Both the position numbers and the translations under genes were made by a program. The notes below the pieces were generated by a model, which saw nothing but the letters and a program-made list of their open reading frames with translations, did no database searches and was not told the DNA's origin. A DNA stretch of 64,000 nucleotides from Candidatus Hydrogenedentota bacterium. GTDB taxonomy: Bacteria > Hydrogenedentota > Hydrogenedentia > Hydrogenedentales > SLHB01. This document shows, one piece after another, positions 6,543-7,151 of this stretch. Position 1 is the stretch's first letter. Each line of letters begins with the position of its first letter. Location: contig CAXXTH010000014.1 in the NCBI GenBank assembly GCA_963668025.2, positions 1-64,000 of the forward strand, given 5' to 3'.

Positions 6543-6716
6543 GGAAGGTAGACTAGAGTTAAGGTTGCGCATGCAATGGAAAGAGGGCAGCCTGTAACAT
6601 TCATGTGCCCTTGGTTGTATTTCTAGAGCATACAGCATGAAACTGGCAGGCGCGCCGCGCCCGTGTGGTGTTCGCGGCGAGCCCCAATGTAAAGCAGCAT
6701 ACAGGAGAGTTCAGGT

Positions 6717-6905
6717 ATGAAGAGGCATTGCCGCTTGATTGGTAAAGCGCGGCCCGTAAAGGCGCAAACCACCGGCCTTCAGGTAAAACTGGATCTGCTG
6801 AGCAACATGGTGGATTTTGGCTTTAGCACGTATAATTTCGTGGTTGATTTGATCATGGTATCAAAAGGCGCTGGCGACACACCTAACTCGGATGACAGTG
6901 AATAA
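6717..6905 (+). CDS. Small peptide A (62 aa), putative leader plus amphipathic core
   Basis: AGGAG RBS upstream. MKRHCRLIGKARPVKAQTTGLQVKLDLLSNMVDFGFSTYNFVVDLIMVSK...; paralogous to the next ORF. Confidence 0.8.
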   Translation: MKRHCRLIGKARPVKAQTTGLQVKLDLLSNMVDFGFSTYNFVVDLIMVSKGAGDTPNSDDSE

Positions 6906-6922
6906 GAGAAGGATGCTTACAT

Positions 6923-7087
6923 ATGCGTATCACACACGTTTCTTGTATCTCCGCCGAACGGCCAATGGCCGCTCAAACCACAGGCCTGCAAGCTAAAGCG
7001 GAATTCCTGCAAGGGGTTATGACCACTTTCGCGTCGAATTATCAAGATATAATCAACAATATCAAGTTTAAAGACTGGGCGAGATAG
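6923..7087 (+). CDS. Small peptide B (54 aa), paralog of peptide A
   Basis: Below the ORF-track cutoff. Manual translation: MRITHVSCISAERPMAAQTTGLQAKAEFLQGVMTTFASNYQDIINNIKFKDWAR*. GAGAAGGA upstream. Shares H-x3-I-x3-RP-x2-AQTTGLQ-x-K with peptide A. Confidence 0.8.
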   Translation: MRITHVSCISAERPMAAQTTGLQAKAEFLQGVMTTFASNYQDIINNIKFKDWAR

Positions 7088-7116
7088 CCAGCATCTTTTT
7101 ATCGACTAACCGCATA

Positions 7117-7151
7117 CGGAATGGCCGGAAGGCTGTTCCGTTTTCTATTTT
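7117..7151 (+). terminator. Intrinsic terminator of the two-peptide transcript
   Basis: cggaatggcc-ggaa-ggctgttccg stem (with G-U pairs) followed by ttttctatttt on the + strand. Confidence 0.65.

Follow-up and report, generated by a model that had tools for sequence, protein, structure and literature searches.

Leader-bearing small-peptide genes paired at one site almost throughout Hydrogenedentota, and their possible tie to a distant, putative maturation operon

Two short, adjacent open reading frames (ORFs), here called A and B, lie near the start of a 64,000-nucleotide stretch of contig CAXXTH010000014.1 (C14 below) from a Candidatus Hydrogenedentota bacterium (assembly GCA_963668025.2) – the whole of this stretch being the window, to which positions refer unless another contig or locus is named. 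A model that had seen only the letters and a list of ORFs had described them as an operon of two paralogous peptides with a leader-like N-terminus (the sequence-only reading), and its translations match ours. The elements of the peptide unit, whose two gene types (S and L) are defined further on, are the following:

6506-6537, + strand: perfect 12-bp inverted repeat 3' of the pckA stop codon, without a T-run; the upstream boundary of the peptide unit
6703-6709, + strand: Shine–Dalgarno-like AGGAGAG, 7 nt 5' of the ATG of A
6717-6905 (stop included), + strand: ORF A, 62 amino acids (aa); first gene of the pair, the counterpart of S-type peptides
6717-6767, + strand: leader-like block of A, residues 1-17, with H4, P13, A16 and Q17 conserved and Gly9 where the family has Ser or Thr
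6906-6913, + strand: Shine–Dalgarno-like GAGAAGGA, 9 nt 5' of the ATG of B
6923-7087 (stop included), + strand: ORF B, 54 aa; second gene of the pair, the counterpart of L-type peptides without their low-complexity tail
6923-6976, + strand: leader-like block of B, residues 1-18, with H5, S10, P14, A17 and Q18
7116-7141, T-rich tail to 7151, + strand: intrinsic-terminator-like hairpin of 11 pairs, six of them G–C, which ends the A–B unit

A and B are coding paralogues, and their likeness goes beyond chance. BLASTP aligns them without gaps over 43 residues at 37% identity (E 3e-9), and in the shared block AQTTGLQ their codons – GCG CAA ACC ACC GGC CTT CAG in A, GCT CAA ACC ACA GGC CTG CAA in B – show four synonymous differences and no replacement, much as the sequence-only reading had argued. 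Its outline of the locus, with two ORFs 17 bp apart, each behind a ribosome-binding site and both between a hairpin and a terminator, is likewise borne out. The terminator scan found two candidates, against 0.6 expected; it requires a T-run and therefore does not list the repeat at 6506-6537. Shine–Dalgarno sites of the GGAG/AGGA type precede 11 of the 11 family members first examined, the exact sequence of B is present in a public protein library (P0080), and an Rfam search over 6300-7300 gave no credible match.

The sequence-only reading had also made its proposal depend on transcription, and there is a weak hint that transcription runs through A–B as far as the terminator: in X4, a metatranscriptome library of another study, contigs cover 6777-6927 (three differences) and 6940-7111 (no differences) and end just short of the hairpin. 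None falls on pckA or on the kinase gene downstream, a gap in cover that is no evidence of their silence. DNA runs from other studies contain fragments of the locus; X3 and X5 gave only short stretches, most of them 90-95% alike.

In A and B the window carries its copy of a family of small, leader-bearing peptides that has not been described before and spans nearly the whole phylum. With A as a single query, a word-indexed protein collection returned A alone, such a word-based search being too insensitive for this family; B as a single query against 40 related genomes gave only weak matches (E 0.05-0.7), which on translation mostly carry the same N-terminal block, in small ORFs with Shine–Dalgarno sites, several of them in tandem. 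A profile of 11 members (A1) has matches in 101 of 133 genomes of the order, and one of 47 members (A2, E<=1e-3) covers 119 of the phylum's 135 genomes, among them 81 of the 86 of high quality; it matched neither of the two genomes outside the main order and, within family f3, five of 14. When run against 1.84 billion representative proteins, A2 retrieved 257 at E<=1e-3, of which 38 reach E<=1e-10, and the best 150 of these 257 measure 40-97 aa throughout, except for two unrelated repeat proteins. The titles of the records that bear the family read Candidatus Hydrogenedentes or Hydrogenedentota. As a control for circularity, the profile was rebuilt from 44 members of other genomes, with the three rows from the window's own genome removed; A (E 1.4e-8) and B (E 4.4e-8) then rank first and second among the 140,482 six-frame ORFs of that genome. 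The homologues that the sequence-only reading had wanted sought are thus abundant, with their motif conserved.

These data bear on the least flattering view of the locus, that A and B are chance ORFs or decaying, functionless remnants in the window's genome, which is hardly credible. The leaders of A and B do depart from the consensus, as this view would have it, but the frames are intact and come with Shine–Dalgarno sites and a terminator, the shared block differs by synonymous changes only, the profile E-values are of the order of 1e-8 and the RNA library covers the locus.

That the system is undescribed, as first suggested, also holds, since no known family or larger protein was matched. 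Neither A nor B has a match in Pfam or NCBIfam at E<=10, PDB profile searches with A2 and with a further profile (A3) gave nothing usable, and the ESM Atlas returned no usable match for an L-type peptide; the family as a whole corresponds to no entry of Pfam, NCBIfam or PDB. The few leader peptides whose names were looked at in the public libraries carry no annotation. Hydrogenedentota are widespread, and we know of no member of the group in culture. Literature searches brought up no description of the peptide family, nor of a SPASM–GNAT maturase, such as is discussed below, in Hydrogenedentota; the genome papers on the phylum present the group, in their main text, as a poorly understood candidate phylum, and that text has no mention of RiPP, bacteriocin, radical SAM, secondary metabol-, small protein or leader peptide, while their supplements might list clusters.

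What the family looks like is clearest from the other phylum families, in which the first gene encodes an S-type peptide of 41-46 aa and the second an L-type peptide of 54-88 aa. S-type peptides begin M-K-H-H-K-x-I-T-R-K-P-Q-x-[AS]-Q and continue as an amphipathic helix finishing ...I-E-F-I-F-x-x-T-x. L-type peptides have a leader with a few extra N-terminal residues, a body reading ...I-S-N-F-Q-I-K-L-E-x-T-T-x-I-I-D-R-L-L-L-x-x-R-Q-x-P-W-K and a tail rich in Thr, Gly, Asp, Ser and Asn that often closes with T-E-[LI]. In the window's own family (f1) the bodies are more divergent, and A has a short acidic tail. The part held in common is the basic block of 17-18 residues with the consensus H-x3-[IVL]-[ST]-x2-3-P-x2-A-Q, whose H and P are invariant and whose A and Q nearly so in alignments A1, A2 and A7, the bodies differing between types. 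The leader-like motif first noticed in A and B therefore proves to be a family-wide module, and the length of about 16 aa once proposed for it agrees with the conserved block (17 aa in A, 18 aa in B) and with the predicted start of the helix at residue 20 of A.

This last prediction comes from AlphaFold2, which – given a 54-row alignment – models A with a mean predicted local distance difference test (pLDDT) score of 78.5, residues 1-19 being non-helical, residues 20-52 a helix (pLDDT about 90) and the remainder a loose tail. An L-type peptide (12 rows) was modelled with low confidence (pLDDT 56, helix 16-38), and the prediction for an A+B complex (alignments A5 and A6) scored 0.02 against a mark of 0.32, a result that carries no weight either way as to binding. 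A Lys about seven residues past A-Q, nearly invariant in the first alignment, corresponds to K24 in A and K25 in B. W52 of B aligns to the Trp of the [RQ]-x-P-W-K motif and is invariant in alignment A6, of whose 67 rows 65 were chosen for that Trp motif – the exceptions being B and L020:1729-1956, which has P-W-K near its end – so that only the alignment of B is informative. A and B have one Cys each, in both cases within the leader. Three ideas about the peptides were dropped along the way: a copper site of the X-X-His (ATCUN) type at M-K-H, because the His of L-type peptides stands at position 5-7, its spacing being fixed to the Pro and not to the N-terminus; a Tat-like S/T-R-R motif, there being no h-region; and magnetosome-like or other mineral-binding acidic tails, the family being phylum-wide.

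No Sec or Tat signal is apparent in the 17-18 residues up to A-Q, which, as read from the alignments without running a predictor, are basic or polar and contain no hydrophobic stretch; pilin sites of the forms G|F-x-x-x-E and G|x4-E-Y do not occur in the family alignments, and no member matches a Pfam pilin model. Together with the absence of a double-glycine motif, these points uphold what the letters of A and B alone had suggested. They also bear on the idea that the peptides are building blocks of a pilin-like, coat or fibre structure at the surface or in the membrane, with a new kind of short N-terminal signal, the Thr/Gly/Asp tails of L-type members being exposed or glycosylated, an idea we regard as distinctly improbable. 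A basic leader before a hydrophobic or amphipathic helix and a polar tail, in tandem paralogues as known for Flp pilins, would suit it, as would the run of about 22 hydrophobic residues after the leader in some members of the arrays described below, and two solo members that follow paralogous genes with signal-peptide-like starts (porin-like on an untested reading). Set against this are the missing pilin sites (G|F or G|xxxxEY) and Pfam matches, the S-type helices, which are charged every three to four residues and hence not membrane-like, and the fact that the sole T2SS-F gene type seen adjoins a solo peptide in only three loci.

The leader is not confined to the pair. A scan of the window's genome with the leader profile, the family profile and the motif pattern turned up further small ORFs on contigs C3, C10, C14, C17, C18, C22 and C23 that begin M-K-H-x3-[IVM]-S-...-P-x-x-A-[QE] and continue with unrelated bodies; at least 12 leader ORFs are present in this genome, and all nine besides A, B and the ORF at C17:685,944 have Shine–Dalgarno sites. 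A profile of the leader alone (A7, 19 positions) finds one to eight matches per genome in 118 of the 135 genomes. In the 150 A7 matches listed, every open frame is at most 167 aa long, so that the leader is not seen on a large protein, and the genomes without leader matches are essentially those without the pair. A and B thus display the general trait of precursors of peptides that are ribosomally synthesised and modified post-translationally (RiPPs), a small ORF made up of a conserved leader and a separate body.

Several of the leader ORFs stand alone. One, about 950 bp beyond the end of the window at C14:64,944-65,219 (+ strand; L129:1529-1720), is a 64-aa ORF with a Shine–Dalgarno site, an M-K-H leader start and another body, and follows two small signal-peptide-like genes. 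Two paralogous loci, at C10:1,116,725-1,118,382 (L121) and C18:280,293-281,988 (L122), each encode a 464-473-aa protein followed by a 50-aa leader ORF; the larger proteins have a signal-peptide-like start and a coiled-coil-like stretch, their porin-like appearance being an untested reading by eye, and the two leader ORFs are near-identical in build. A conserved solo peptide found at four further loci (L130, L135, L142 and L143) has the leader and then ...F-x-x-W-x-N-...-L-x-x-F-Y-x-K-T; it adjoins a T2SS-F-like gene in all of these except L135, and in two of those three it also adjoins a PpiC-type rotamase gene and argS. Another own-genome match, on C10, sits within a 796-aa frame, and one on C12, weak, antisense to another gene and without an ORF, was rejected.

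The pair itself sits among housekeeping genes, the window's nearest being these:

2033-3967, + strand: ATP-binding cassette (ABC) ATPase of the ABC-F type (Pfam ABC_tran twice, ABC_tran_Xtn, ABC_tran_CTD); upstream neighbour, given for context only
4840-6492: pckA, upstream of A–B
7155-7988, - strand: Ser/Thr kinase consisting of the kinase domain only (277 aa; Pfam Pkinase, E 2.4e-50), convergent with the pair and last gene of gatC-gatA-gatB-rsfS-kinase

Of 21 pair loci compared, the window included, 19 have two or more family members side by side. The kinase-rsfS-gatB-gatA string follows downstream, with the kinase adjacent and convergent, in 13 of the 21, across phylum families, and pckA lies directly upstream in five. 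An ABC-F gene stands upstream on the same strand in 11; a member of its blast cluster occurs in 15 loci, but four of these members sit at another place in the stretch, run on the opposite strand or are considerably shorter. Three f3 genomes without the family retain ABC-F, pckA, kinase, rsfS and gatB; pckA and the kinase abut in two of them (8 and 24 bp apart), and the third has an unrelated 190-aa ORF in between. The pair is therefore cleanly absent from its usual site, and its neighbours, kept without the peptides, are independent of it. The housekeeping synteny alone is weak evidence about function.

Gene order is, all the same, the starting point for a different view of the peptides, as small intracellular helical proteins that are neither cut nor exported. 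Their N-terminal block ([RK]-x-hydrophobic-[ST]-[RK]-x-P) would then be docked on or phosphorylated, for instance by the adjoining kinase, or the pair would act on translation, given ABC-F, RsfS and GatCAB as neighbours. The frequency of the kinase and of ABC-F beside the pair suits this view, as do the free interchange of Ser and Thr at one site of the leader, three residues after a basic one, and bodies conserved as in housekeeping proteins. We nevertheless think it unlikely: the kinase, ABC-F and rsfS-gatB persist in genomes without any leader peptide, A has Gly at the Ser/Thr position, gene order inside one phylum is weak evidence, and the same leader occurs on unrelated, partly membrane-like bodies beside an operon with a protease and an exporter.

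That operon came to light in 16 kb of sequence fetched around 20 further leader matches. Eight of the fetched loci hold arrays of two to five tandem leader peptides of several conserved body types, including one with 22 hydrophobic residues, one with two Cys, one with a K-D-P-x-N-P tail and others. Neighbour clustering and Pfam define, directly downstream of the arrays, a conserved set of genes for a GNAT of about 194 aa, a second GNAT of about 208 aa (Acetyltransf_3, E 3e-18), a CPBP/Rce1-like intramembrane protease (PF02517, E 1e-12) and an ABC ATPase, followed further on by a protein of 632-648 aa with a C-terminal GNAT. The two GNATs, the CPBP protein and the ATPase occur together in five of the eight array loci, four of which also have the 632-648-aa protein inside the 16 kb; the other three have a partial set, one of them stopping at a contig end. 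The ATPase is DrrA/ABC-2-like, and the 331-aa protein that follows it weakly matches ABC2_membrane_3. The window's genome has its own copy:

C17, 581,985-588,056, - strand: operon of two GNATs, CPBP protease, ABC-2 ATPase and permease, and a 642-aa protein
C17, 581,985-588,338 (L150:4486-11095): the same operon with two leader peptides

Between the operon and gltD are the two leader-type ORFs, which measure 45 and 40 aa. The same arrangement recurs in a close relative (L152), in L153 of family f5, which has five peptides, and in L151 of f14, an outgroup family, where three divergent leader peptides were spotted by eye. The sequence-only reading had supposed that processing machinery is encoded elsewhere in the genome and that peptidase, transporter and modifying genes might co-occur with the peptides; a plausible processing and export operon does lie on C17, and the genes found with the leader peptides include CPBP, ABC-2, GNATs and the protein of about 640 aa. 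The peptide family probably feeds this modifying and exporting cluster.

The 642-aa copy of the protein of about 640 aa scores 40 bits with the SPASM model TIGR04085 over residues 341-423, above its cut-off of 27, and gives partial matches to TIGR03974, NF047865, TIGR03906 and TIGR04064, the models of SCIFF, PapB, QhpD and Nif11 peptide maturases, with whole-protein scores far under the family cut-offs (TIGR03974: 71.5 against 425 bits). Its only PDB match is CteB (5wgg/5why, E 3e-18), over two parts: residues 6-173, which correspond to the peptide-binding N-terminus with the first part of the barrel, and residues 340-429, which correspond to SPASM. The 642-aa copy has no Cys in the region aligned with the CxxxCxxC of CteB, and none of seven orthologues has that motif anywhere, so that radical S-adenosylmethionine (SAM) chemistry is not expected; what the seven do keep is four SPASM cysteines and, close to the N-terminus, a C-x-C-x2-C. 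Public relatives number 273 at E<=1e-10 among the candidates scored, almost all from Hydrogenedentes, under names such as 'SPASM domain-containing protein', 'GNAT family N-acetyltransferase' or 'hypothetical'.

Among the closest known systems are those of SCIFF ('six Cys in forty-five') precursors and other ranthipeptides, whose maturases, such as CteB and PapB, have an N-terminal RiPP recognition element (RRE). The alignment with CteB and the adjoining small precursor genes are points of likeness; the absence of CxxxCxxC (0/7), the fused C-terminal GNAT and the scores under cut-off are points of difference, as is the composition of A and B, which, unlike SCIFF precursors, are not Cys-rich and have no Cys-rich C-terminal core. 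Another likeness is to selidamides and other GNAT-modified RiPPs with NHLP or Nif11 leaders, which also have GNATs in the peptide cluster and many precursor paralogues, some of them far from the enzymes; the conserved Lys of the A/B family may, by analogy, be an acyl acceptor. The review PMC10849128 describes selidamides as fatty-acylated and reports a GNAT in 8% of NHLP clusters. The present leader differs in its length of 17-20 aa, in having no Gly-Gly cleavage motif, in the phylum in which it occurs and in its SPASM–GNAT fusion partner, and no leader model of NCBIfam or Pfam, those for NHLP and Nif11 included, matches any of the 47 members at E<=1 or either of A and B at E<=10.

Taken together, the comparisons favour a RiPP-like precursor over the other end uses offered by the sequence-only reading, which included a two-peptide pair, a filament or coat subunit and a pheromone. 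We propose that A and B are satellite precursor peptides of a RiPP-like pathway of leader recognition, GNAT acylation, CPBP cleavage and ABC-2 export, at a probability of roughly 0.55. Each peptide would consist of a basic leader of 17-18 residues, an amphipathic helix starting with the conserved Lys and a short polar tail. The leader would dock onto the RRE-like N-terminus of the 640-aa protein; at least one GNAT domain would acylate or acetylate the peptide, candidate acceptors being the conserved Lys or a new N-terminus; the CPBP protease would cut the leader off near P-x-x-A-Q; and the ABC-2 pump would export the helical product. A and B themselves would be satellite substrates, their genes lying apart from the machinery on C17. 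Binding, modification, cleavage and export, and the role of A and B as substrates, are what we infer from the comparative data. Precedent for the cleavage step, by analogy only, is MroQ, a CPBP protease that processes AgrD by removing its N-terminal leader, although the A/B peptides have no sequence relation to AgrD. Going further, the 640-aa protein might be a former radical-SAM maturase that has lost its SAM cluster and now serves as a leader-binding scaffold for the fused GNAT, the acylated, exported helices, those of the A/B-type pair among them, being constitutive parts of the envelope or surface and not antibiotics. They would be made by a housekeeping RiPP pathway, inherited vertically across the phylum, with a leader class and an enzyme architecture that are both new; this extension is speculative, and we hold it to be unlikely.

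The same cluster can be read without any modification, the peptides being exported products of the class II or two-peptide bacteriocin kind whose leader would serve only processing and export, with the CPBP protein as protease or immunity factor, ABC-2 as exporter or immunity pump, and the GNAT and SPASM proteins doing some other job. Class IIb bacteriocins do resemble the pair, since their two small genes also adjoin each other and encode a short leader ahead of a core that forms an amphipathic helix; several paralogues with varied bodies occur per genome, CPBP/Abi-type and ABC genes adjoin the arrays, and CPBP/Abi proteins accompany class II bacteriocin loci. This reading is still rather unlikely. 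The leader ends in A-Q and has no double-glycine motif, a C39 peptidase domain, as in the C39-peptidase ABC transporters, was not seen in the cluster (the rest of the genome was not searched for C39), the ATPase being DrrA/ABC-2-like, and the GNATs and the 640-aa protein are conserved in the operon equally with the protease and the pump. The S/L bodies, moreover, occur phylum-wide at one syntenic housekeeping site, which is unlike weapons under diversifying selection and unlike a Firmicutes-type locus.

The putative maturase stands beside candidate precursors only in the case of the array peptides, and the tie of A and B to it consists of family membership and co-occurrence. For the latter, a genome was counted as peptide-positive with an A2 or A7 match and as positive for the 642-aa protein at E<=1e-20, which was found in 123 of the 135 genomes. 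Both are present in 121 genomes and both absent from 10; two have peptides only (G099 and G100, 60% and 88% complete) and two the protein only (G011, 86% complete, and G133, in which divergent leader ORFs were seen by eye). The ten double negatives comprise nine f3 genomes from four genera and the sole f15 genome, an outgroup; the loss in f3 removed the pair at its site, all other leader ORFs and the distant operon together. For family membership, a hidden Markov model (HMM) of the leader trained on 27 array peptides only gave 56 matches at E<=0.01 among 9,825 ORFs of pair loci, 44 of them flagged as members of the pair family, with the proviso that two of these 44 and several unflagged matches come from the training locus or repeat it where loci overlap. 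Since the array-only model matches the leaders of the pair family, S/L and array leaders belong to one family.

Several points weigh against the proposed pathway. The double-negative genomes are kin and may reflect just one or two loss events, which makes the co-occurrence statistically weak. With the array-only HMM, A reaches just 7.2 bits (E 3) and B is missing from the list, and genome-wide the solo leader ORFs, not A or B, rank first; A, B and some other f1 members have one extra residue before the Pro, and A has the Gly at the Ser/Thr site. As the leaders of A and B themselves deviate in this way, their tie to the operon runs via orthology with the S/L pair, and it is indirect in another sense, too, linking different contigs. 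Conserved S/L bodies at a housekeeping site are unusual for RiPPs or bacteriocins and fit a cell-biological role that may do without export. The 640-aa protein is without a radical-SAM cluster, so that any chemistry proposed for it is tentative. The X4 contigs, finally, give no strand, ends or level, and an RNA library may contain DNA.

Should the pathway exist as proposed, the leaders would form a new family that comes with a well-delimited candidate operon and a testable set of substrates. The central protein of this RiPP-like system would have kept its peptide-binding and SPASM parts, lost radical chemistry and gained an acyltransferase, which would show instructively how an enzyme is repurposed; the system might also supply helical peptides in acylated form. 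Near-universal presence, conserved bodies and a fixed site point to a physiological rather than a competitive role, which is uncommon for such systems. The leader motif would also be a simple annotation handle for dozens of small Hydrogenedentota genes.

Some smaller observations concern the records retrieved and the surroundings of the pair. The two repeat proteins among the profile matches, P0099 and P0110, were rejected as family members, being long repeat proteins with spurious matches; P0099 (334 aa) consists of six tandem repeats of about 57 aa, each with a leader-resembling [HD]-T-W-L-I-T-R-K-N-P-E-M-S-Q, which may be due to chance, a wrong-frame repeat or a concatenated relative. One homologue of the 642-aa protein is labelled Bathyarchaeia. 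Among the pair loci, seven (L083, L094, L096, L098, L100, L101 and L110), all with typical L-type peptides, include several contigs titled 'uncultured Nitrospirales bacterium'; L083 and L098 belong to genomes placed in the window's phylum, and the Nitrospirales labels look wrong or generic. Downstream of the pair, the window's - strand carries at 7155-13587 a string that reads gatC (tentatively assigned)-gatA-gatB-rsfS-kinase, in which inserted ORFs, among them a HEPN-domain gene (9901-10284, Pfam E 6e-23), separate gatB from gatA.

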